Shown here piece after piece: positions 9,909 to 32,085 of a stretch of DNA of 42,960 nt. How positions within the stretch are numbered: position 1 is the stretch's first letter; every line of letters begins with the position of its first letter. The position numbers and the translations under genes were made by a program. Source of the stretch: Escherichia phage vB_EcoP_P64441. The notes under the pieces are model-generated. The model had not been told where the DNA came from, ran no database searches, and was given only the letters and a program-made list of their open reading frames with translations. The stretch lies in the sequence record PQ847473.1; one strand, 5' to 3'.

Positions 9909-11465
9909 TTATTGAATTAAACCTAATTGTTGACCTGCTACAGTCGGGTCAGTAACTTGCAATAATGATTGCTGCTGCTGCTGGTCCTGCTGCTGCTGTG
10001 CTTGCTCTGCTTGCTGGCGTGCTTGCAATTCCTCTTCACTATAGAAGAAGGCACTGCTCTGAATGCCGAAGCTATCCATTACACTGTCAATCAAAGCATC
10101 AACGTTAGTACGTACAGTTGCCTGTTGCAGTACTGGTACAATTAATTGAAGACTCTGTACTGCTTCAAGTAGTCTATCAGCCTGGGCTGACTTGTACAAG
10201 CTAGCGGTCCCTACCGTTACATCCAGCTCCAATGCACCGAGCTCGAACATAGGTCGAATCTCAGGATACTTATTAAGAACGTACAGGTACGCGAGTTTAC
10301 GAAGCCAATTATCTGCAAGTGTAGAGTAAGCGTCACCTAAGGCTGATTGTGCTTCTTGAGCATTCTGACGAATCTCATAAGCAGTTACACGCTCACCTTG
10401 ACGAGTGTTACCGCCGTACATGAATGCACGGGATAGCTTCTGCTCGATAGTGCTAATCTCAGCTTGTAGCGCGGCAATCTTCTGAGCGTTCCCACCTTCA
10501 TGGGACCATACTCCAGAACTGGTACCTGCGGGCTGGTTAGTCTGTACGAACTCACCTGTCTCTGCATCTTGCAATGCATCAATATCTACACCAGAAGCTG
10601 AGCTAACCATGTTAACTACTCTCGCTGCTTCCACCTCATACAAGGTTAAGCTACGGGAAAGTACAGATAAACGGGCGAAGTCACCAGCGTAATCCTCAAC
10701 GAGGCTACGACCGTAGTGCTCACCATTAACAAGGTTCCATGCCAGTACTACGTACGGACATTGGTCCTCAGGATAATAGCTAGGCTCACCTACAGGGTAG
10801 GTTTCGACTTCCTGATATACTTTATATACATAACCAAGCTCACGACGCTCACGCATAATTCCAGTAAATAAGCGCACATCATCGTACATCTCCTTATTGG
10901 AGAAGTGAGCTCGTCGGATATCATCTGGGATATCCGCAACGCTGATACGTTCACGTAGGATTGTAGTCAGTACGTTACCGGCTCCATCACGCTTAGTAGC
11001 ATAATCGCGCACGCTGTATACGTAAGAACGTTCAGTTTCGGAGTCGAAGTATTCCAGAGCATTGCCAGTTACGAGTAATAGTTTAATAGCGCGTAGCTTT
11101 GCAGCATACCCACCTTTAGTGAATACGATACTAGATGCTACAGCTTCCATTTCAGCCTGAGCTGAGAAGACCGGACCTTGCAGACCTAATTGGTCAACAA
11201 TCCCTGTAAGGTCAGCGGATGCCGCGAATCTAAAGAATGGACTGCCTTGTGGAAACAATGCATCTACAATCTTAGTAGCTGCTGAGTTGACAAGCAGCGC
11301 ACCAGTACTCTGATAGTCATGCACCAGAGAAGTACGCTTACCGTCACTCGCTGTAATATCCTTAGTGAATACGTTAGGAAGTGTCCAGCGAGCGTATTGC
11401 TCAGCAGCGTCTAGTGTAGATGCATCCTTCAATCGAACGAATAAATCTGCTAAACGCTTTTGCAT
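9909..11465 (-). CDS. Portal (head-to-tail connector) protein (gp8-like)
   Basis: 518 aa. 'GERVTAYEIRQNAQEAQSALGDAYSTLADNWL' parallels T7 gp8 'GERVTAEEIRYVASELEDTLGGVYSILSQEL'. Gln-rich C-terminus. Confidence 0.85.
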   Translation of the reverse strand: MQKRLADLFVRLKDASTLDAAEQYARWTLPNVFTKDITASDGKRTSLVHDYQSTGALLVNSAATKIVDALFPQGSPFFRFAASADLTGIVDQLGLQGPVFSAQAEMEAVASSIVFTKGGYAAKLRAIKLLLVTGNALEYFDSETERSYVYSVRDYATKRDGAGNVLTTILRERISVADIPDDIRRAHFSNKEMYDDVRLFTGIMRERRELGYVYKVYQEVETYPVGEPSYYPEDQCPYVVLAWNLVNGEHYGRSLVEDYAGDFARLSVLSRSLTLYEVEAARVVNMVSSASGVDIDALQDAETGEFVQTNQPAGTSSGVWSHEGGNAQKIAALQAEISTIEQKLSRAFMYGGNTRQGERVTAYEIRQNAQEAQSALGDAYSTLADNWLRKLAYLYVLNKYPEIRPMFELGALELDVTVGTASLYKSAQADRLLEAVQSLQLIVPVLQQATVRTNVDALIDSVMDSFGIQSSAFFYSEEELQARQQAEQAQQQQDQQQQQSLLQVTDPTVAGQQLGLIQ

Positions 11466-11468
11466 AAT

Positions 11469-11699
11469 TTAAATCCCAAGTGCAGACGATGCTGCGCCTT
11501 GACGACGTCGCTTCTGGTCTGAGGTAATTGCAGTTGCAGATGCAGAGGCTGCGCCGCCTGAATCTACCTGAGTCAGGTTCTCACCAGAAGCATCGTTATC
11601 TAATGCAGCCTGTGCCGCGATGGCTTGCCGCTGTTGTTCAGCTGCTTTCTGCTGCGCTTCCAGTGCCGCAGTGTCAGTCAGTCCAACAAGGTCAGTCAC
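11469..11699 (-). CDS. Hypothetical protein (76 aa)
   Basis: Small ORF directly upstream of the portal gene. The called start is GTG. Confidence 0.3.
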   Translation of the reverse strand: MTDLVGLTDTAALEAQQKAAEQQRQAIAAQAALDNDASGENLTQVDSGGAASASATAITSDQKRRRQGAASSALGI

Positions 11700-12249: not shown

Positions 12250-14700
12250 CTAACAGAAAAAGAATCTGCTACCCAGTACCTGCTTAAGGTCCAAAGAACC
12301 TTTAGCTGGTAACTCCAGCCCTTCTAAGTCTGCCCCACAAGCTACTGCCGCATCAGTAATCTCCTGAAGTACGTCATGCTCTGTGTACAGACGTAGGAAC
12401 TGTTCGCGGATAGCAGAATGCATTTCATCTACATCGCAAGCGTGAGTAGCTACCGAGTCGTGGATAGGCATAATGTCTCCTGAGAATGCAGAGATAGTCA
12501 TACCTAAGTGAGTAGCGTCTAAGCTGTGCACCCAATTAGGGGAGATGCCTGACTTAGCCTTACGCTTGTTGTTTACATTGTAGTTACGGTTGTACACCAG
12601 CAGGTGTGTCAGGTTCATGCTCTTAACAGAAACCTTAGTCTCTTCTGATTCAGTGTATCGGTTGATAACCAGCCCGCCTAACGGAGTCTTCCATTGAAGG
12701 TGGTTGGCTGCTGGTACACGATAGCACAGTGACTGTACATATTTCATCGCCTCAGTAGCTGCTGGGTTAGCGTCCTCTACTGCTGCCTTCATGCGAGTAC
12801 TCAGATATCCTGCCAGCTTGAACAGGCTGTACTCTTCCGTCCCTTCGTAACCTTCTTCCTGTGCAGACTGAAGGATGTACTCTGAGCAAGAGCGCACAGT
12901 AGCCGAGTATACGTGTGTCATGCATGGACGTTTAGCCATGCTGCGGGTAATCTCGTTCCCACGCCAGTAGTTAGCCTGCACTACGAAGTCAGGATTGTCC
13001 AGGTCCATGATGACCTTAGCATCAGTACGGCGCTTAACGTCCATGTACATATCTGCTTTCTCTTCGTTACCCTCCCAGAACAGGTTAACTAAACGACCAC
13101 CTACTGAGTCACGCAGTAACGCGGCGAAGTGCTGCTGCCCCGAGTTGGTTGCATCCATAGCCACCGGAATGCGTGATTCGTATGTTTCCGGGCTGCCCGA
13201 GTCAATAGCAGCAACGAGGTCGATGCAGGCTGCCAGAAAACACCACGGGCTGTCTGCACTCCTGAAAGCTTCTGCATTAAACGGATTTGATGCGACAAGT
13301 CGAATCTGCTCGATATTAGCATCAGTCCAAGCTGCACGCTTTTCGAATAAGGCTTTATCATAACCATAGCAGGTAGCGACGTGTACCTTGAGCCAAAACA
13401 AACCCCGCTCTCCCAGAGGCTTTGCCCGACTGAAGGAGAGCAAAGCTTTCTGCATGTCAGGACCCTGAGGGTGCAGGCTTGATTTGAAGTACAGGCGGTA
13501 GCGCCAGTCAACGCAGGTTGGGAAGTACAGTTCTTTCTCATCCTTAAACTCCTCGCAGAGTTGAACCAGTGTCACCATGGAACGCAACTTACTTACGCGA
13601 GTACGCTCTTGGATGTACCAGTTACGCATATTCATCTTCCAAGTCTGGAAGTCATCCATCTGGCGCTCGGTGTAATCCTCTTTAGGTACACCGTCCAGAT
13701 ACCACTCAGGTTTAGGGGCTGGGTAGGAACTAGGCATACCTGTCGTTACACCTTCACGACGTGCTTGGTTAAGCAGATTAAGTACTTCCTTGTTGATAAC
13801 GTAAGGCACTTCCTGCGCCTTGTTCAGCATATCCTTCAGTCCCTCTGCCTGCTTGAATGCCTCTGCTACTTCACGTTTCATTGCACGAGTAATCTGGTGA
13901 TTATGGTAAGTACCGCGCTTGCAAGTGCTGCTTAGAAGGTATCCACCTGAGAACATGTCTACATGCTTCTGCGGAGGTACAATCATTGGGGGTTTAATCT
14001 CTACGGTATCTGCGTCCAGTACTAAATCGCCTAGTACCTCAGCTAATACTTCAGACGGTGCCAAGTATTGTAGCTGGGTTGCGTCAGTGCTCTTATCCCA
14101 CGTGAACAGGCCTGTTTCCCACACAGGTTGTAGGATTAATTTACCTACTGCTACACACTGAGAAGCGGACCAAGGTTCATGCCCGTAGTGCACATTCTCT
14201 GCTGAAGCACGTAAGGTCTTCATAATATGCGACTGACTTGTAGTGTTACGTTCTTTCAAGTACTCAAATACACGATTCATATATGCGGGTGCAACTACTT
14301 CTAACTGTATGCTAAGGACCTCGGCTTGAACCTGGCGCCCTAGGCTAGCCAGCAAAGCTTGTGCAGATGTACGGCTTCCACCAGACTCTTTAAGGAAGAG
14401 GGAGTCAATGCATTTAGTGAGTGCCATTACAGCGAGAACGTCAGTAGGGACCAGACGGATAATGCTGCGGTACTTACCGCCGACGCCTGCGGTCTTCTGT
14501 GCCTTCATCTCGTCAATGCCTTGAGCAACAGTATCATAGGCTGCTGCAATCATGCGACTTACCTTAGGCAGGCTGCTTAAGTTACCTGCTGCCAGTGCCT
14601 TCTGCACCAGCTCACGCGACTTGTTCAGGCTACGAGTGCGGTAATCTTTCTCTAGCTGTAACTGGCGTTCTACTTTCTGTTCTAATGTTTCGTGTTGCAT
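12250..14700 (-). CDS. T7-like single-subunit DNA-dependent RNA polymerase
   Basis: 816 aa. 'MDATNSGQQHFAALLRDSVGGRLVNL' matches the T7 RNAP motif A region '[25 protein letters not shown]'. 'IHDSVATHA' matches motif C (HDSFG). The C-terminus 'LGSRFFFC' parallels T7 'ESDFAFA'. Confidence 0.9.
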   Translation of the reverse strand: MQHETLEQKVERQLQLEKDYRTRSLNKSRELVQKALAAGNLSSLPKVSRMIAAAYDTVAQGIDEMKAQKTAGVGGKYRSIIRLVPTDVLAVMALTKCIDSLFLKESGGSRTSAQALLASLGRQVQAEVLSIQLEVVAPAYMNRVFEYLKERNTTSQSHIMKTLRASAENVHYGHEPWSASQCVAVGKLILQPVWETGLFTWDKSTDATQLQYLAPSEVLAEVLGDLVLDADTVEIKPPMIVPPQKHVDMFSGGYLLSSTCKRGTYHNHQITRAMKREVAEAFKQAEGLKDMLNKAQEVPYVINKEVLNLLNQARREGVTTGMPSSYPAPKPEWYLDGVPKEDYTERQMDDFQTWKMNMRNWYIQERTRVSKLRSMVTLVQLCEEFKDEKELYFPTCVDWRYRLYFKSSLHPQGPDMQKALLSFSRAKPLGERGLFWLKVHVATCYGYDKALFEKRAAWTDANIEQIRLVASNPFNAEAFRSADSPWCFLAACIDLVAAIDSGSPETYESRIPVAMDATNSGQQHFAALLRDSVGGRLVNLFWEGNEEKADMYMDVKRRTDAKVIMDLDNPDFVVQANYWRGNEITRSMAKRPCMTHVYSATVRSCSEYILQSAQEEGYEGTEEYSLFKLAGYLSTRMKAAVEDANPAATEAMKYVQSLCYRVPAANHLQWKTPLGGLVINRYTESEETKVSVKSMNLTHLLVYNRNYNVNNKRKAKSGISPNWVHSLDATHLGMTISAFSGDIMPIHDSVATHACDVDEMHSAIREQFLRLYTEHDVLQEITDAAVACGADLEGLELPAKGSLDLKQVLGSRFFFC

Positions 14701-14739: not shown

Positions 14740-15504
14740 TTACTGGTTTGCTAGGAACACTGCCTTAGCAAACCCTCTTGGAGTTAATGAGCGAATTACT
14801 TTAGTCTTAACAGATTTACCGCCCAGTTTACTATGTTGGGCGCTGTACCCTGCTTCCACTTCTACAGGTTTAACTTCAGGTATATTAAAACCATTACCTA
14901 CCCATAAGCACGTCTTCTTAGGATAAGCGTCCCGTGGCTTTATATAGTCTGGGAACTCAGGATGACTGTCGTCAGTATCCAAATAGCCGCCATACTGGTA
15001 TGGGTGAAAGGAGTAGTCCGGCTTACGCCACTTACTACTCAGTACACTTACTGGATTCTCAATCATGTAAGGTACAGCGTACTTATCCCCTAAGATAGCA
15101 GCTAGCTTAGCCGTAGCTACTGCCTTGTTCTGTACCTCTGGGTCTTTAGCTATCTTAGCTGCAAAGTGCGCGGCGCCGCTTACTGCTAAGTCAGTACATG
15201 GAGGGAATGCGAGTATTAAATCAGGCGTCTCTTCAAAATCAAATGAACTATCTAACCACACGTTAACGTATGTAATATTAAGGTGCTTAACCTTAATACC
15301 ACTATAAGGCCCGTGGTCGGCATCGTCAGAGTTAAAGCAGTAGCACTTGTAACCGGCCTCAGCGAAGGGAAGAACAGCATACCCTGAACCGTCAAATAAA
15401 GACCATACAACTTTACCCATAATTACCTCACTTGGACTCGCGTCCCTTCCAAATCTGATAAAGCTCTTCGTAATCCTTAGCTGCTGCCGTGTCTCCACGC
15501 TCAA
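14740..15504 (-). CDS. Putative SAM-dependent DNA (cytosine-5) methyltransferase-like protein
   Basis: 'SLFDGSGYA' resembles C5-methyltransferase motif I (FxGxG), 'FPPCTDLAVSG' motif IV (PC), and 'YMIENPVSV' motif VI (ENV). Only 254 aa, so a full target-recognition domain is doubtful. Confidence 0.4.
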   Translation of the reverse strand: MSVETRQQLRITKSFIRFGRDASPSEVIMGKVVWSLFDGSGYAVLPFAEAGYKCYCFNSDDADHGPYSGIKVKHLNITYVNVWLDSSFDFEETPDLILAFPPCTDLAVSGAAHFAAKIAKDPEVQNKAVATAKLAAILGDKYAVPYMIENPVSVLSSKWRKPDYSFHPYQYGGYLDTDDSHPEFPDYIKPRDAYPKKTCLWVGNGFNIPEVKPVEVEAGYSAQHSKLGGKSVKTKVIRSLTPRGFAKAVFLANQ

Positions 15505-20489: not shown

Positions 20490-21071
20490 TTATTCGCTTA
20501 CATTAACCCAATCAGGACGCTCACCCTTACCGCAGTAAAAGTCAATCAGGTCTAGTAAGCGTGGATAATACTTCAGCGAACTCTTACCGTCCATTTCCGC
20601 AACCTGGCGCTTACTGAAGCTGCGCCACTCTGCTGCCGTATGCTGCTGACATCCTACACGCACTATGTCATTACAGATACTAATGAAGTACGTTTCTCCG
20701 TATATAATGACAGTCTTGGCGCCGCGCAGGTCAGCGCGGCGCAGGTTAGCGCTGCGCAGGTCAGCTTCGCGCAGGTCAGCGTCGCGCAGGTCAGTGCCGG
20801 TCAGGTCAGCGCCGCGCAGGTCAGCGCCGCGCAGGTCAACGTCGCGCAGGTCAGCGCCGCTCAGGTCAGCGCCGCGCAGGTCAGTGCCGGTCAGGTCAGC
20901 GCCGCGCAGGTTAGCGTAGCGCAGGTTAGCGCCGCGCAGGTCAACGTCGCGCAGGTTAGCACTGCTCAGGTCAGCGTCGCGCAGGTCAGCGTCGCGCAGG
21001 TTAGCGCGGCGCAGGTCAACGCTGTGCAGTCTTCCTAACTTATACTTTTCGCAGATTTCTTGATAGTTCAT
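20490..21071 (-). CDS. Pentapeptide-repeat protein 2 (about 22 A(D/N)LxG/R-type repeats plus a roughly 75-aa non-repeat C-terminal domain)
   Basis: '[56 protein letters not shown]...' is a continuous pentapeptide repeat as in Qnr/MfpA DNA mimics. Encoded by a 15-bp tandem DNA repeat. The N-terminus is paralogous to 27205..27741. Confidence 0.8.
20718..21030. repeat. 15-bp tandem repeat array (coding; pentapeptide repeats)
   Basis: Units such as 'gcgcaggtcagcgcc' / 'gcgcaggttagcgcc' repeated about 20 times. Confidence 0.9.
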
Positions 21072-21619: not shown

Positions 21620-22807
21620 TTAAATTACCATCTCCCCTTTAAAGGACTTACCAATCTCACATTCAGCGGGAAACTTAACTTCAGACAGTATGCCAAAGTT
21701 AGGCCACAGCTGTAGCATCCTATCACGGGCTCCTTCCATAACGTTTTTGATGAGCTTACCCGCCTTACGGGCCGTCTCTTCGTCAGCACAATCTATGTAC
21801 AAACAGTCATGGACGGTAACCAGCAAACACCATTTACCCCCCATCCAATTGTCAGCTATACCAGCCCTCATAGCCATTCCGGTTGCAATAAGCATAAGCA
21901 GGGAACCTGATCCTTGAAACGGATAGTTAGCCATCTCTGTGGGCTTAAAGTCCATTACCTGCTTACCTTCGCGCCACACCGGCTTCTGACGGAAGCGGTA
22001 GCGAGTACCGCAAGGCGTAGTGAAGTAGCCCTCGCGATAGATACGCCAGCTGCCGTCATCTGCTTGTTCACGGCGTATAGGCTCCAGCAGCGCAGTACGG
22101 TTTACTTCAGCTGCAATGACATCCCTGTACTTAATAGACTCAGGGAATAGTGCCTCCTCGTTAGCTAAGAACTTCTCAGCGTCGGCTAAGCTAGCACCTG
22201 AGGCGAACGCCAGTCCTTTAGCGGATGCTCCATATTGTGCTGCGAAGCTGAAGGTTTTGATGGCTGTTCGCTTCTTCTTCCATCCTTTATGGTCCGGTGC
22301 ATCCAGGTTATGGCAAAGCTCGTAGACTTCTTCATAAGGCATACCTTCTTGGAATGCTAGACGATAGCAGTGCATATCCGTACCGGCTTCAAGCAAGCTC
22401 AGTAATTTCTTATCACCAGTGATTACACAGCCCATTACAACCTCCATAGCTGAGTAGTCACACTGTGCAATCATACCCTGCTCACCATAGCGGCTACGCA
22501 GAATCTGCTTAACCTTAGACTCACGCGGCAGCTGCTGCATGTTCGGGTTAGATGTTGACAGGCGTCCGGTAGTAGTTGAGCAGTGATTCGACCTGTGGTG
22601 AATGATGCCAGAACCATCTGCTGATGTAGGGATGACGTACGGCAGCATGCCCGTCACCTTACGCAGACTGCCATCCTTATTAGTCTCACGTACTTCATAG
22701 AAGCCGAGGTCCTTCTGGCGTGTAGTCATTTCTTTGTATGTTTTGAAGAAGTCTGAAGCTAACTTAGCCATCTTGTTCCATCCCAATAAAATAATGTGCA
22801 AGGTCAT
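21620..22807 (-). CDS. DNA polymerase (family A), polymerase-domain ORF
   Basis: 'GRLSTSNPNMQQLP' (pre-motif A), 'CDYSAMEVV' (motif A, DYSxxE), 'RTAIKTFSFAAQYGAS' (motif B), 'VTVHDCLYID' (motif C, HD). Overlaps the upstream exonuclease-domain ORF by 44 nt in the +1 frame. Confidence 0.8.
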   Translation of the reverse strand: MTLHIILLGWNKMAKLASDFFKTYKEMTTRQKDLGFYEVRETNKDGSLRKVTGMLPYVIPTSADGSGIIHHRSNHCSTTTGRLSTSNPNMQQLPRESKVKQILRSRYGEQGMIAQCDYSAMEVVMGCVITGDKKLLSLLEAGTDMHCYRLAFQEGMPYEEVYELCHNLDAPDHKGWKKKRTAIKTFSFAAQYGASAKGLAFASGASLADAEKFLANEEALFPESIKYRDVIAAEVNRTALLEPIRREQADDGSWRIYREGYFTTPCGTRYRFRQKPVWREGKQVMDFKPTEMANYPFQGSGSLLMLIATGMAMRAGIADNWMGGKWCLLVTVHDCLYIDCADEETARKAGKLIKNVMEGARDRMLQLWPNFGILSEVKFPAECEIGKSFKGEMVI

Positions 22808-23915
22808 TCATTGCGTCCATTCCTGTGCTGTACACAGGGCTACCATCCGCTAATGTTTGAGCACCTTTGTATTCACCGCGGTCTCCGTACTTCTCACGTA
22901 GAGACTGAGGTAGGTCCTGAATATTAACCAGCCCGTCGAAGCGGTACAGGCGTTCACCCCACTTCATAGCTTGCTCGTCAGTGTCTACTTTTATGAACTT
23001 AGGCATACCCTTATTACGCCCAGACTTATACACCCCGTCCTGTACTTCCTTCTTAATGTATTTAGGTGGGTCATAAGGAACCTTGCACTTGTACTTAACC
23101 GTGCCGCCATACACTAAAGCGGACATATGATAACCGCTATTCCATTTAAACTCGAAGCCCTCTGGCAATTCTGGCAAGAATGTCTGAAGTAACTCCCGCA
23201 GATTCCGAATAGCGTCCTCCTGCTCCTTCTGATTAGCTCTGGCTGTAGGCATATCAACGTACACGCCATTGAACTCACAGTATGCCAGAGCTGCGACTGC
23301 CTCCATCCTTTCCCAGACCATAGGCATCTGTCCACGTTCCGCAAATACTGCGCATTGCCCGTAGAAGCACAGCGCTGTGTTGACTATGTCACCGTTAGGC
23401 CCTGTTAAGTATTCATGTAGTAGCATAGGGTCAATGTCTGCTGTCAGAACCCCTTGCTGCCATAGTAGCTTAACGCCGTCGACTTTGTGTGACCCGCCAT
23501 ACTTAGGGGCAGTCTCATCTAGTGACGGGTAAAGATTCTGGAAGTCGCTGGCAATGTACTCGCCCTGCATAGTATCAAAGACTCGACCTCCTCGTCTAAG
23601 GAACGACTCGAACTGCTCACGGGCAAAGGTCAGCGCCCAGCTAATCTCGTACGCTGCGTTGTGCGCTACGATTAACCACGTATCATCCTGAATAGGTAGC
23701 CACTGCTTAGGGTCAGCTGCTAAGAAATCAGTTCGGGATTCATAGCGTACACTCTGCACCTCGCTGCACTGTACAGTCCCATCCGGCATAGTCCTATCGA
23801 TGCGGAAGCCTGATTCTACGATGTAGTTATCAGGGCAGTACGGAGTTGCGACCCCGCCGTAGTACGGATGATTTTGAGTTTCAATATCCCAAATTAGAAT
23901 GCTACTCATTTCCAA
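22764..23915 (-). CDS. DNA polymerase (family A), N-terminal 3'-5' exonuclease-domain ORF
   Basis: 'LIWDIETQ' is an Exo I (DxE) motif. Contiguous with the polymerase-domain ORF. The called start at 23915 is TTG; a likely ATG start lies at 23909 (MSSILIWDIET). Confidence 0.7.
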   Translation of the reverse strand: MEMSSILIWDIETQNHPYYGGVATPYCPDNYIVESGFRIDRTMPDGTVQCSEVQSVRYESRTDFLAADPKQWLPIQDDTWLIVAHNAAYEISWALTFAREQFESFLRRGGRVFDTMQGEYIASDFQNLYPSLDETAPKYGGSHKVDGVKLLWQQGVLTADIDPMLLHEYLTGPNGDIVNTALCFYGQCAVFAERGQMPMVWERMEAVAALAYCEFNGVYVDMPTARANQKEQEDAIRNLRELLQTFLPELPEGFEFKWNSGYHMSALVYGGTVKYKCKVPYDPPKYIKKEVQDGVYKSGRNKGMPKFIKVDTDEQAMKWGERLYRFDGLVNIQDLPQSLREKYGDRGEYKGAQTLADGSPVYSTGMDAMNDLAHYFIGMEQDG

Positions 23916-26713: not shown

Positions 26714-26892
26714 GATTCTATTAACTCCTTAACGTTATCACTCGTAACAAATACCGTACTGCATGCAGGGTTATCCTCAAATCCGTGCAGCTGGTCTATA
26801 CGGTAGATACTGCTACTCCCTGTCTTGATAGGGGAAATCTTTAAGTTGTGCTCAACGAAGTTCATTAGATGCCTCTGTAGGATGTCTGCCAT
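26620..26892 (-). CDS. Hypothetical protein (90 aa)
   Basis: ORF only. Confidence 0.3.
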   Translation of the reverse strand: MADILQRHLMNFVEHNLKISPIKTGSSSIYRIDQLHGFEDNPACSTVFVTSDNVKELIESWLTSNGLEQHRDWLLVKLKDSDAAVKQQQQ

Positions 26893-27194
26893 TCATAATA
26901 CTCAATGCAAGCAGCCTTAAACGCCTGCTTAGCGCCCTCATACCCCAGCTGCTGCAACTGCCTTACTATATCGAAATTGATGCGTCGCAGGACCTCTGAG
27001 GCCCTTTCAGCATCATACTTATAATAACCTACCAACAACCGCATACCTTCCTTAGTATCGTAGTCCCTGCACCATTTTAAAGGGCAGAGCTTACGCAGTT
27101 CAATCGGTACGTCCTTTAACGTCTTAAGGCCTAAGCTGCTCTGGCTCTCGAGCATACGCCAGTACTGCTCTGTTACTTCTTCTACTGGTAACAT
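26865..27194 (-). CDS. Hypothetical protein (109 aa)
   Basis: ORF only. Confidence 0.35.
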   Translation of the reverse strand: MLPVEEVTEQYWRMLESQSSLGLKTLKDVPIELRKLCPLKWCRDYDTKEGMRLLVGYYKYDAERASEVLRRINFDIVRQLQQLGYEGAKQAFKAACIEYYEWQTSYRGI

Positions 27195-27204
27195 GCCTAG
27201 CTCC

Positions 27205-27741
27205 TTAGATACTAACCCAATCAGCGACGCGCAGGTCAGCGTCGCGCAGGTCAGTGCCGGTCAGGTCAGCGCCGCGCAGGTCAGCGCCGCGCAGGTTAGC
27301 GCCAATCAGGTTAGCGTCGCGCAGGTTAGCGCCGCTCAGGTCAGCGCCGCGCAGGTTAGCGCCGCGCAGGTTAGCGCCGTGCAGGTCAGCGCTGCGCAGG
27401 TCAGCGCCGCTCAGGTCAGCGCCGCTCAGGTCAGCGATGTTCAGGTCAGCGTAGCGCAGGTCAGCGCCGCGCAGGTCAGCGCCGCTCAGGTCAGCGCCGC
27501 GCAGGTTAGCGCCAATCAGGTTAGCGTCGCGCAGCTTAGCGTCGCTCAGGTCAGCGACGCGCAGGTCAGCGTCGCTCAGGTCAGCGTAGCGCAGGTCAGC
27601 GCCGCTCAGGTCAGCGCCGCGCAGGTCAGCGTCGAGCAGGTTAGCGCGGCGCAGGTCAGCGCCGCACAGGTCAGCGCCGCACAGGTCAGCGCCTTCCAAG
27701 GATTCCAACTTGTATTTATTACAGATATTGTCATAAGTCAT
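27205..27741 (-). CDS. Pentapeptide-repeat protein 1 (about 30 contiguous pentapeptide repeats)
   Basis: '[44 protein letters not shown]...' runs almost to the C-terminus. Likely start is the ATG at 27741 (MTYDNICNKYKL) with a GAGG ribosome-binding site; the track ORF extends to 27792. Confidence 0.8.
   Translation of the reverse strand: MTYDNICNKYKLESLEGADLCGADLCGADLRRANLLDADLRGADLSGADLRYADLSDADLRVADLSDAKLRDANLIGANLRGADLSGADLRGADLRYADLNIADLSGADLSGADLRSADLHGANLRGANLRGADLSGANLRDANLIGANLRGADLRGADLTGTDLRDADLRVADWVSI
27225..27695. repeat. 15-bp tandem repeat array (coding; pentapeptide repeats)
   Basis: About 30 units of 'gcgcaggtcagcgcc'-type repeats. Near-identical at the DNA level to the array at 20718-21030. 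Confidence 0.9.
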
Positions 27742-27751
27742 ATTAGTAACC

Positions 27752-27991
27752 TCAGTTAATTTTAATATTAAAACGTGCACAATACCCTTCAAGGGTCATC
27801 CCTACTTTAGCTGCTTTAAGACTGTAAGCTAACTTAAGAGCTTCCTTAGCGTCATGCTCACGAGCCAGCTTCTCAATCGTTACTTCATCATTACGCATCA
27901 GAATCATTTCGGGGTTCCGGTTAATCATTTCTGCATCTCCAGTTTGAAAAGGGCCATTGCAGCGTTCAGGCGAAACGCGGGTTGCATTCAT
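27752..27991 (-). CDS. Hypothetical protein (79 aa)
   Basis: ORF only. Confidence 0.3.
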   Translation of the reverse strand: MNATRVSPERCNGPFQTGDAEMINRNPEMILMRNDEVTIEKLAREHDAKEALKLAYSLKAAKVGMTLEGYCARFNIKIN

Positions 27992-28890: not shown

Positions 28891-28918
28891 ACTATACTCC
28901 TATTTTATTTTGTGTCAA
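28891..28918 (-). promoter_or_regulatory. Sigma70-like promoter P2 (TTGACA-16 nt-TATAGT) reading the minus strand
   Basis: Minus strand 'gtgTTGACAcaaaataaaataggagTATAGTtgg'. Confidence 0.5.
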
Positions 28919-28921
28919 CAC

Positions 28922-29587
28922 TTATTTTGAAATTCTTTCTGAAATATACACAAATCCCTTAGGAGTAAACTGCGCAGAGATGCGTGCAACCTTTAATCTG
29001 TCAAAAGTAACCTTATGCTCCCCACGTTTAGCCTTTAGCCAGCCTGCACTGAATGTCCACGTACCATTCAATTTATACATATGCTTATTCTCTACCAGCC
29101 AACTTCTTACTTCAGCTTCAGTGTAAGATAAGAACTTACACATCTCACGTAAAGTCATAAGACCTGTAGTATCTACATAGTTACCTACGAACTCAACCTT
29201 AGGCGCTGCTTCTTCTACCTTCTCTTGGAGCTTCAAGTTCTCTTCTGCGTAGTTCTGGAGAAGTCCCAGCAACTGCTTAGGGTCATGCAAGTTAATAGTA
29301 GGCTGACGTTGCTTACGCTCCAGCTCTTCCCAACGGTCAATGATACGGGCGCGCAGTTCTACATTGTAGCCAGAGATAACAAGCAATGTATCACGTTTAG
29401 TTAAATGCCACTCGCGCTGTTGCTGATTATTATATCCGGCGTAAGTTACTGATTTACTTGATTGGCTCAAAACTGAGCCAATGCTTTCAATGTCCCTAAG
29501 TACGTTCTTATGCAACTTACCAGTCAGCTCAGCAATCTCGCGGCTAGTCATGGTCTGTACATCAGTAGTAGTAGTTAAATCAAACAT
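28922..29587 (-). CDS. Rha-family phage regulatory protein-like
   Basis: N-terminal 'QTMTSREIAELTGKLHKNVLRDIESI' resembles the Rha-domain signature (MSSREIAELTGK.H..VLRDI). Confidence 0.6.
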   Translation of the reverse strand: MFDLTTTTDVQTMTSREIAELTGKLHKNVLRDIESIGSVLSQSSKSVTYAGYNNQQQREWHLTKRDTLLVISGYNVELRARIIDRWEELERKQRQPTINLHDPKQLLGLLQNYAEENLKLQEKVEEAAPKVEFVGNYVDTTGLMTLREMCKFLSYTEAEVRSWLVENKHMYKLNGTWTFSAGWLKAKRGEHKVTFDRLKVARISAQFTPKGFVYISERISK

Positions 29588-31538: not shown

Positions 31539-31539
31539 A

Positions 31540-32085
31540 ATGTCTCAATTATCCCCTACTATTATGTGTTGGTAGTGTATTGGCTGTGACTCACCTTATT
31601 GTTAAAAGCTGTACAACTAATACACCAACTAATACAACTACCCGCAGCATAACACAGCACTAACCCTGCGTCAACCATTGCACAGCCTGGAAGCAAAAGA
31701 GGTAAGCCTAACGATACACCTGCACTACCTCTGACTCTCTACTGCGGATAAAATAGGCAAGAGCAGAGAGGACAGCATCTCCCTGTGCTCCACAAAATAG
31801 GCAAGACTAACCTCTCCCGCACCCTCAACAGAGAGCGCAGAGACAGCCAGCCAAGCCAGGTCCTGCCAGAGATACGCAGAGGCACCCCCTACCCTCCCTC
31901 CAGAAGATTCCCAGAGGCCGCCCCTACGGGGGGAACAGCGCGTTGGTCGGGTGAAGGAGGCCCTCGCGTGAGTATAATAAATTCAAGGTGCCTGTTTACA
32001 CTTGCAATCCTGAGCTATGTATGCTATGCCAAAGGATTCCCCAGAGATTCCAGGGGATTCCATTAGCAATTTCTCTAGCTATTCC
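31540..32085. other. Non-coding region, candidate genome-end / terminal-repeat region (collapsed in this circular assembly)
   Basis: About 550 bp with no credible ORF, lying between the last late gene and the first early gene. Contains short direct repeats ('aaaataggcaaga' twice, 'actaatacaNc' twice) and G/C-rich tracts ('ccctccctcc', 'cccctacgggggg'). Confidence 0.35.

Follow-up and report, generated by a model that had tools for sequence, protein, structure and literature searches.

An accessory pentapeptide-repeat gene in the early block of Escherichia phage vB_EcoP_P64441: sequence, predicted fold, paralogue and possible role

We analyzed PRP-1, a gene encoding one pentapeptide-repeat protein (PRP) and carried by Escherichia phage vB_EcoP_P64441 (record PQ847473.1); the window referred to below is this whole stretch of 42,960 nucleotides (nt). 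Judged from its sequence and gene context, PRP-1 is a real accessory gene of the early block that encodes a bare pentapeptide-repeat solenoid and is paralogous to a second PRP gene of the phage, PRP-2. As to its function, the reading that we favour, at a probability of roughly 40%, is that PRP-1 would bind a host protein stoichiometrically, with a counter-defence decoy as the most plausible form. PRPs are common and annotated in phages, and PRP-1 adds to this known class as a well characterised but ordinary member; its value lies in a tractable enterobacterial system with natural plus/minus variants rather than in a new type of element.

An unbroken array of 32 pentapeptides

The PRP-1 open reading frame (ORF) lies on the minus strand and extends over 537 nt from an ATG at 27741 to a stop codon at 27205-27207, encoding 178 aa. 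An earlier annotation made from the letters alone (the sequence-only reading) had described a pentapeptide-repeat protein of this length at this position, and both the ORF and the translation bear it out. The protein consists of a 17-aa head, MTYDNICNKYKLESLEG, followed directly by 32 in-register pentapeptides without a break (residues 18-177) and one last residue (Ile). The repeats, earlier put at about 30, form eight coils of four and follow the consensus A-(D/N)-L-(R/S)-(G/D). Positions 1 and 3 are Ala and Leu, respectively, in 31 of the 32 units; position 2 is Asp in 23 units, Asn in 8 and Lys in one, Arg (16) and Ser (7) occur at position 4, and Gly (18) and Asp (6) at position 5. A search with the Pfam pentapeptide profile, which the sequence-only reading had suggested, placed PRP-1 in family PF00805 with a score of 194.1 bits (cut-off 20.2; E 1.6e-58). 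At the DNA level TRF reported a period of 15 nt with 31.5 copies, 84% matches and a score of 610. Taken together, the TRF score and the PF00805 E value put the repeat pattern far beyond chance.

The start codon is preceded by a GAGG Shine-Dalgarno sequence that overlaps the TGA stop (27752-27754) of the preceding gene, which encodes a DUF7267 protein. A longer version of PRP-1 starting with a TTG at 27792 is unnecessary. The longest exact repeat inside the array is 48 nt and the longest one shared with PRP-2 is 69 nt; as the assembly is consistent with k=127, the length of the array was probably assembled correctly. An exact look-up in a collection of 15 billion proteins did not find the PRP-1 protein. 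The gene has a GC content of 65.5% against 48% for the genome, but as this is largely forced by the codon set of the repeat we set it aside as weak evidence of foreign origin.

Structure prediction, likewise proposed by the sequence-only reading, gave a high-confidence result. The AlphaFold2 (AF2) model, built on a 35-sequence alignment, reached a pLDDT of 94.2 and a pTM of 0.88; it starts with a short helix (residues 3-9) and shows a beta-bridge at five-residue intervals over residues 14-174. PRP-1 is thus predicted to fold into a right-handed quadrilateral beta-helix of eight coils with four repeats per coil, roughly a rigid rod of about 40 Å by our own estimate, with the short N-terminal helix as a cap. 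When the model was compared with the PDB using Foldseek, the top matches were only PRPs, including the Np275/Np276 fusion (2j8k, TM 0.79), MfpA (6zt5_A, TM 0.75), synthetic beta1 solenoids, HetL, QnrB1, AlbG and EfsQnr. A sequence search of the PDB agreed with this result (4yfo, E 3.5e-44).

The best sequence and structure matches are the consensus-type PRPs (Np275/Np276, HetL, Alr5209 and the synthetic beta1 solenoids), which have in common with PRP-1 the A(D/N)LXX repeat and the Rfr fold. PRP-1 differs from them in being phage-encoded, in its unusual regularity (32 units unbroken, one codon per residue) and in its lineage-specific head. Since the function of the consensus-type proteins is mostly unknown, the match says nothing about the activity of PRP-1. 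The NCBIfam profile of the Alr5209 family (NF052603) scored 179.4 bits against a cut-off of 125, a value reached through four overlapping stretches on a 113-position repeat profile; we set aside the corresponding "equivalog" identity as an artefact of summed repeats that carries no functional content. Automated pipelines may give PRP-1 a misleadingly specific name, since NF052603 is passed only by these summed overlapping matches.

PRP-1 had also been compared with Qnr and MfpA. The comparison holds for the fold, but not at the level of the family: the NCBIfam Qnr profile (NF033086) gave 68.0 bits (cut-off 240), the MfpA profile (NF000349) 69.1 bits (cut-off 360) and every Qnr subfamily at most 70 bits (cut-offs 425-500). 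The Qnr loops A and B are not present in PRP-1, where the five-residue register is unbroken over residues 18-177. Nor was a C-terminal dimerisation helix found by DSSP on the AF2 model, as the chain stops one residue past repeat 32, and dimerisation by another route is possible. What PRP-1 shares with Qnr, MfpA, McbG and AlbG is the fold, the overall size (about eight coils per monomer) and the acidity; it is a lytic-phage gene, whereas theirs lie on a chromosome, on a plasmid or in a toxin-immunity operon.

A paralogue, a variable slot and a homogeneous 15-nt unit

PRP-2 was not mentioned in the sequence-only reading and was found through a search with the PRP-1 head, which matched the Escherichia phage vB_EcoP_PAS7 (PAS7) at another position. 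It combines a head as in PRP-1 with 20 pentapeptides drawn from the codon set of PRP-1 and a C-terminal alpha/beta domain of about 75 aa with an invariant G-C-Q-x-H...W motif. The gene is located within the replication module, flanked by the genes for DNA polymerase and metallophosphoesterase, and is preceded by a 62-aa ORF. Its AF2 model (pLDDT 83.9) consists of a solenoid followed by a domain of three strands and four helices. Of the 17 head residues, 9 are identical in PRP-1 and PRP-2, and in their DNA the heads are only 65% identical. The head was absent from the database homologues aligned from the first search and appears to be specific to this Slopekvirinae lineage. The two arrays use the same codon per residue and have in common 30 exact 41-mers and an exact run of 69 nt. 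The shared head, the shared codon set and the 69-nt exact stretches suggest a duplication followed by continuing gene conversion between the arrays. PRP-1 would then derive from a PRP-2-like gene, either the second PRP gene of this phage or that of a relative.

The C-terminal domain of PRP-2 belongs to no Pfam family and matches phrog_37032; it is also present in orf232 of P22-like phages. A word-indexed search with this domain returned 2 proteins only and an exhaustive profile search was needed, which found it in 2,723 clusters at 50% identity. In 127 of the top 150 matches a PRP array lies N-terminal to the domain. A blastn search of the domain against E. coli genomes gave no match. PRP-1 has no residues past its array and does not have this GCQxH domain.

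PRP-2 is common to this phage and PAS7 and is absent from Salmonella phage S.Kent 1-2-1. In the PAS7 record (OQ921331.1) the orthologue, at 10867-11612 (1501-2246 of the piece analyzed), is frameshifted, the frames changing near piece position 1773; either it is a pseudogene or the split results from an error in sequencing the repeat. The PAS7 coding sequence WMX18797.1, named "modular polyketide synthase", runs antisense to the PRP-2 repeat array as its mirror ORF and is likely a misannotation.

The slot occupied by PRP-1 was compared by tblastn synteny in five relatives: PAS7, S.Kent 1-2-1, ECO104 4-5-2, LM 4-14-1 and one IMG/VR contig. In all five the DUF7267 gene directly abuts the phrog_6167 gene, which here lies downstream of PRP-1, and PRP-1 is missing. 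The junction TAAGGAGCTAGGCATG is identical in the two arrangements, following the PRP-1 stop codon in this phage and the DUF7267 stop codon in S.Kent 1-2-1. By this comparison PRP-1 is a cleanly inserted accessory cassette in a variable early block, an accessory status that is typical of counter-defence genes.

The 109-aa phrog_6167 neighbour was found as an identical protein on four Logan contigs (SRR32022326, SRR32022400, SRR25131766 and SRR28201390). Three of the four start within the last 17-21 codons of PRP-1, one with an Arg-to-His change. This indicates that PRP-1 is present in three other samples, and that short-k assemblies break at its array. A 73-aa "short PRP" allele on Logan contig L007 was considered as a repeat-number polymorphism and rejected as a chimeric assembly, its 5' context (62-aa ORF and head) being that of PRP-2 and its 3' end (ADWVSI and the 109-aa protein) that of PRP-1. 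A search for related loci with the 109-aa neighbour led to one IMG/VR locus without a PRP, and the same search with the primase to none. A DNA pattern for the PRP-1 C-terminus had a single match in viral contigs, a chance one inside a portal gene.

Codon usage in the PRP-1 array is nearly invariant, Ala being encoded by GCT (31/31), Leu by CTG (31/32, the core Leu always), Arg by CGC (17/17) and Gly by GGC (18/18). The units differ in codons 2, 4 and 5 only, where 31, 19 and 6 changes fall on first, second and third codon positions, respectively. There is essentially no synonymous variation among them and about 46 non-synonymous differences, and the variation falls on the exposed positions i-1, i+1 and i+2, a pattern that fits selection on the surface.

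The founder unit GCT GAC CTG CGC GGC recurs in the PRP-2 array (20730-21020), in a PRP of Eggerthella phage PMBT5 (piece L009, 2944-3429) and in about a dozen IMG/VR contigs, which have unrelated N- and C-terminal domains and a GC content of 44-60%. In the PMBT5 array we counted 42 differences that are non-synonymous and 0 that are synonymous (P ~1.6e-7 with a simple neutral model). The DNA-level match of this array to PRP-1 was rejected as whole-gene homology, as only the 15-nt unit is common and the heads and tails differ. Other phage PRPs are homogeneous around other founders (GCC..GGT in phage L, GCG..GGT in BOESR1), and that of RsoP1IDN is heterogeneous. Our reading is that phage PRP arrays may be young or continually homogenised, with variation kept on exposed residues. 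Published phage PRP genes with 15-bp and 375-bp indels, whose repeat number is unstable, fit such arrays. The common unit points either to the exchange of repeat cassettes between phages or to a constraint at the nucleotide level.

Possible roles of PRP-1

PRPs are very numerous and few have a known role (Qnr, MfpA, McbG, AlbG and HetL); the phage copies are widely annotated and hardly understood. By tblastn we found PRPs in at least 490 of 50,697 phage records, among them mycobacteriophages and phages of Staphylococcus, Listeria, Rheinheimera, Ralstonia and Caulobacter as well as P22-like phages. BFVD holds many viral PRP models, none with a functional name. The sequence-only reading knew of no characterised role for PRPs in T7-like phages, and our literature search found none either.

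In the reading that we favour, PRP-1 would act in stoichiometric amounts and offer a host protein a binding surface or decoy, possibly through DNA mimicry. The likeliest target would be an anti-phage component with a DNA-sensing or DNA-cutting activity, for instance a restriction complex or an abortive-infection sensor of the RexAB/Sucellos-like kind; protection of gyrase in the manner of Qnr is less likely. An anti-defence or host-interference role is plausible on two grounds. First, a preprint reports that in Vibrio phage 24 escape mutations map to the PRP 24_60 and that its deletion sensitises the phage to the RexAB-like Sucellos system (bioRxiv 10.1101/2024.07.02.601686). Second, PRP genes of two other phages lie next to or near genes of the antirestriction kind: orf232 of phage L, a protein of the PRP-2 type, is encoded in the PL operon between ral (antirestriction) and gene 17, and kil, erf and abc1/abc2 belong to that operon too; in PMBT5, a Lar-like gene for restriction alleviation is found two genes away from gp09. 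Early or accessory positions comparable with that of PRP-1 are occupied by Vibrio phage 24 gp60, orf232 of phages L and ST64T, PMBT5 gp09, the PRP of the Caulobacter RW cluster and two PRPs of Ralstonia Autographiviridae, RsoP1IDN gp4 (1.1 kb upstream of the primase) and BOESR1 gp9 (early block, upstream of the RNA polymerase gene). The likeness to Vibrio phage 24 gp60 is taken from the published description of that protein. PRP-1 differs from the other phage PRPs in having neither the C-terminal GCQxH domain nor DUF5758, and in the head specific to its Slopekvirinae lineage. Among the structural matches was also the solved structure of Hailong HalA, whose PRP-like domain is bound to oligodeoxyadenylate, which indicates that PRP surfaces can bind nucleic-acid ligands and not just imitate them.

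The variation within the arrays allows a bolder version that we regard as unlikely, in which PRP-1 and PRP-2 would form a rapidly retunable pair of anti-defence decoys. Slippage and gene conversion would keep the scaffold uniform, down to a single codon for each core residue, selection would diversify the exposed residues and the coil number, and the 15-nt unit found in unrelated phages would mark a horizontally exchanged cassette. If true, such a pair would enable the phage to remodel a rigid surface of DNA size and direct it against restriction or DNA-sensing abortive-infection proteins, for example those of RexAB/Sucellos-like systems.

Several observations weigh against a counter-defence decoy. 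The case is one of guilt by association, made up of two neighbourhoods and one preprint. PADLOC matched no defence-system model to PRP-1 or its neighbours, PHROGs gave PRP-1 no functional label, and PRPs are not mentioned in the main text of EVADES, a curated compendium of 268 anti-defence proteins. PRP-1 lacks the C-terminal domain of PRP-2 and hence could be a degenerating copy, and the non-synonymous excess among its units could partly reflect amplified pre-existing variant units instead of selection in this lineage. PRP-1 is acidic (isoelectric point 4.36; net charge -12 from 32 acidic and 20 basic residues), with faces of net -3, -6, +3 and -5 and straight Asp/Asn ladders beside Arg/Ser ladders, and to this extent agrees with the DNA mimic earlier proposed. 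Its charge density of -0.069 per residue is however ordinary for PRPs (the median of the 120 closest homologues is -0.050 and 36 of them are more negative), so that acidity is not a specific sign of DNA mimicry. With T7 Ocr and ArdA, PRP-1 shares the early-region position, the small size, the acidity and, in the model, an elongated rigid shape, but the fold is unrelated and the charge density far lower, Ocr carrying a charge of about -28 over 117 aa against -12 over 178 aa in PRP-1. Moreover, the PRPs McbG and QnrB do not inhibit BREX, which Ocr does (PMC7261183), indicating that the fold alone does not confer an Ocr-like activity. Finally, the sigma70-like promoter under which PRP-1 had been placed is a candidate only. 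The 11/12 match, the best one on the coding strand, does lie upstream, at 28918-28891 in the 219-bp gap after the Rha/ANT gene and 1.15 kb from PRP-1, and a terminator scan found no terminator-like site in between; yet the promoter-like sites of the region number 10 against a shuffled expectation of 7.9, which is not above chance.

Among the alternatives, a role inside the phage is doubtful but deserves to be considered first. PRP-1 would here bind a replication or transcription protein of the phage as its scaffold or regulator, and would be a dosage or regulatory variant of PRP-2. The location of PRP-2 within the replication module and its occurrence in PAS7 favour this, as does the position of PRP-1 three genes upstream of the primase, the RsoP1IDN PRP also lying just upstream of its primase; elsewhere, PRPs act as generic protein-binding scaffolds. 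A core replication accessory is however expected to be conserved, and both PRPs are dispensable in close relatives: PRP-1 is absent in five of five, and PRP-2 is missing from S.Kent 1-2-1 and frameshifted in the PAS7 record.

It is rather improbable that PRP-1 is directed at topoisomerases like Qnr, MfpA, McbG and AlbG, that is, a DNA mimic that binds host gyrase or topoisomerase IV and thereby throttles host DNA metabolism or shields gyrase from CcdB, ParE or microcin B17 in abortive infection. The fold is that of MfpA, QnrB1, AlbG and EfsQnr, the gene lies just upstream of replication genes, and small phage-encoded gyrase inhibitors (Igy and Gip) are known. Against this, PRP-1 falls far under the Qnr and MfpA cut-offs, it has none of the loops that Qnr requires for protection, and the structures that it matches best are those of consensus-type PRPs, cyanobacterial and synthetic, rather than Qnr or MfpA. 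The only mechanistically characterised bacterial PRPs act on gyrase, but the interrupting loops and C-terminal helix that are features of this gyrase-acting class are not in PRP-1 (review PMC10886550).

We give still less credit to the idea that PRP-1 has no function and is a by-product, a truncated copy of PRP-2 (head and array) of recent origin that drifts and is kept open by its repeats. PRP-1 is absent from the relatives and lacks the domain that most PRP-2 domain matches carry behind a PRP array, and, as the mirror ORFs illustrate, an array of repeats is open in several frames simply through the way it is built. Yet its start, ribosome-binding site and stop are intact and the operon is tightly packed; it has exactly 32 units, or eight complete coils, more than the 20 of PRP-2; its model is of very high confidence and has its own N-terminal cap; its 3' end recurs in three other samples, and bare PRPs without an extra domain are found in other phages.

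That the actual gene, or a second overlapping one, is the plus-strand ORF 27193-27759 (AQVSA repeats), a codon-aligned mirror of the PRP-1 array, is highly improbable: in this frame the unit variation falls on third, second and first codon positions in decreasing order (31:19:6), resembling purifying selection, the ORF scores 65.8 bits with the Pfam family PF25296 "Decapeptide", and the equivalent ORF of PAS7 is annotated as a gene, but we rejected it since all other genes of the genome are on the minus strand, no promoter-like site or Shine-Dalgarno sequence was found upstream of it on the plus strand, the PRP frame scores 194 bits with PF00805 and runs on into the conserved head (PRP-1 and PRP-2) and the conserved C-terminal domain (PRP-2), and phages with other founder units (GCC..GGT, GCG..GGT) keep the PRP frame where the mirror peptide would change. 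The gathering threshold of PF25296 (Decapeptide repeat region) is 45, and a second mirror ORF at 20640-21038 (+) scores just below it, with 42.9 bits. The genuine PRP frame matches PF25296 too, and this family may therefore collect mirror translations of PRP genes.

Should PRP-1 prove to be a counter-defence protein, it would extend the anti-defence repertoire by a structural class and open a way into the hundreds of phage PRPs; should it prove a modulator of gyrase, it would link phage biology to the quinolone-resistance fold. The phage infects, or is close to relatives that infect, E. coli and Salmonella, and its two paralogues and natural relatives without PRP-1 make it a tractable genetic system.

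Genome setting and neighbouring genes

The ends of the window are identical over 127 bp (1-127 and 42834-42960), consistent with assembly at k=127, which indicates a whole genome of about 42.8 kb that was circularised in assembly and is circularly permuted in the window. Its sequence places the phage in the Autographiviridae/Slopekvirinae, as a phiKMV-like member. The nearest records are PAS7 and unannotated wastewater assemblies such as S.Kent 1-2-1, with an identity of about 78-83% over part of the region only. The description of an early region in a lytic T7-like phage can be retained for the early block, the Autographiviridae and the lytic nature (no integrase was present among the ORFs scanned), with the correction that the phage is phiKMV-like and not T7 proper.

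Gene order was established from PHROG and Pfam assignments and is given in the direction of transcription (coordinates in Table 1). The non-coding probable left end is followed by small early ORFs, Rha/ANT, more small ORFs, the DUF7267 gene and PRP-1. Next come the phrog_6167 gene, a 90-aa ORF, primase, helicase, HNH, DNA polymerase (two ORFs), the 62-aa ORF and PRP-2, and then metallophosphoesterase, exonuclease, endonuclease VII, DNA methyltransferase, RNA polymerase (12250-14700), structural genes, terminase and endolysin. The PRP-1 start lies about 4.3 kb from the probable left end. In phages of the phiKMV-like architecture the gene of the phage RNA polymerase comes after those for replication, and the genes before it are transcribed by the host polymerase. 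As the RNA polymerase gene has this position here, host RNA polymerase is expected to transcribe PRP-1, and would do so before or together with the replication genes.

Table 1 Features of the PRP-1 region, the probable left end and the PRP-2 gene (positions in the window)
Feature	Position	Strand	Basis or remark
PRP-1 coding sequence	27205..27741	-	ORF and translation, Pfam PF00805, AF2, Foldseek PDB matches
PRP-1 15-nt tandem array, founder GCT GAC CTG CGC GGC	27221..27693	-	TRF, per-unit/per-column analysis
PRP-1 GAGG ribosome-binding site, 8 nt 5' of ATG	27750..27753	-	Sequence read directly
PRP-2, 193 aa, second pentapeptide-repeat gene	20490..21071	-	Translation, Pfam, phrog_37032, AF2
phrog_6167 protein, 109 aa, downstream neighbour of PRP-1	26865..27194	-	PHROG
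DUF7267 / phrog_5136, 79 aa, upstream neighbour of PRP-1	27752..27991	-	Pfam and PHROG
Sigma70-like match TTGACA-16-TATAGT, 11/12 (candidate)	28891..28918	-	Promoter/terminator scan
Rha/ANT (Rha/KilAC antirepressor-like) gene	28922-29587	-	PHROG/Pfam
Non-coding 547 bp, probable left end, repeated short motifs	31539-32085		Lies inside the permuted window

Other features of the genome were noted in passing. The DNA polymerase is encoded by two overlapping ORFs at 21620-22807 and 22764-23915 (-), of 383 and 395 aa, and PAS7 is likewise annotated with two "DNA-directed DNA polymerase" coding sequences. A DNA methyltransferase gene (phrog_757; 14740-15504, -) lies just upstream of the RNA polymerase gene, and a Rha/KilAC antirepressor-like protein is encoded in the early region of this apparently lytic phage; either of them may be relevant to host defence or takeover.

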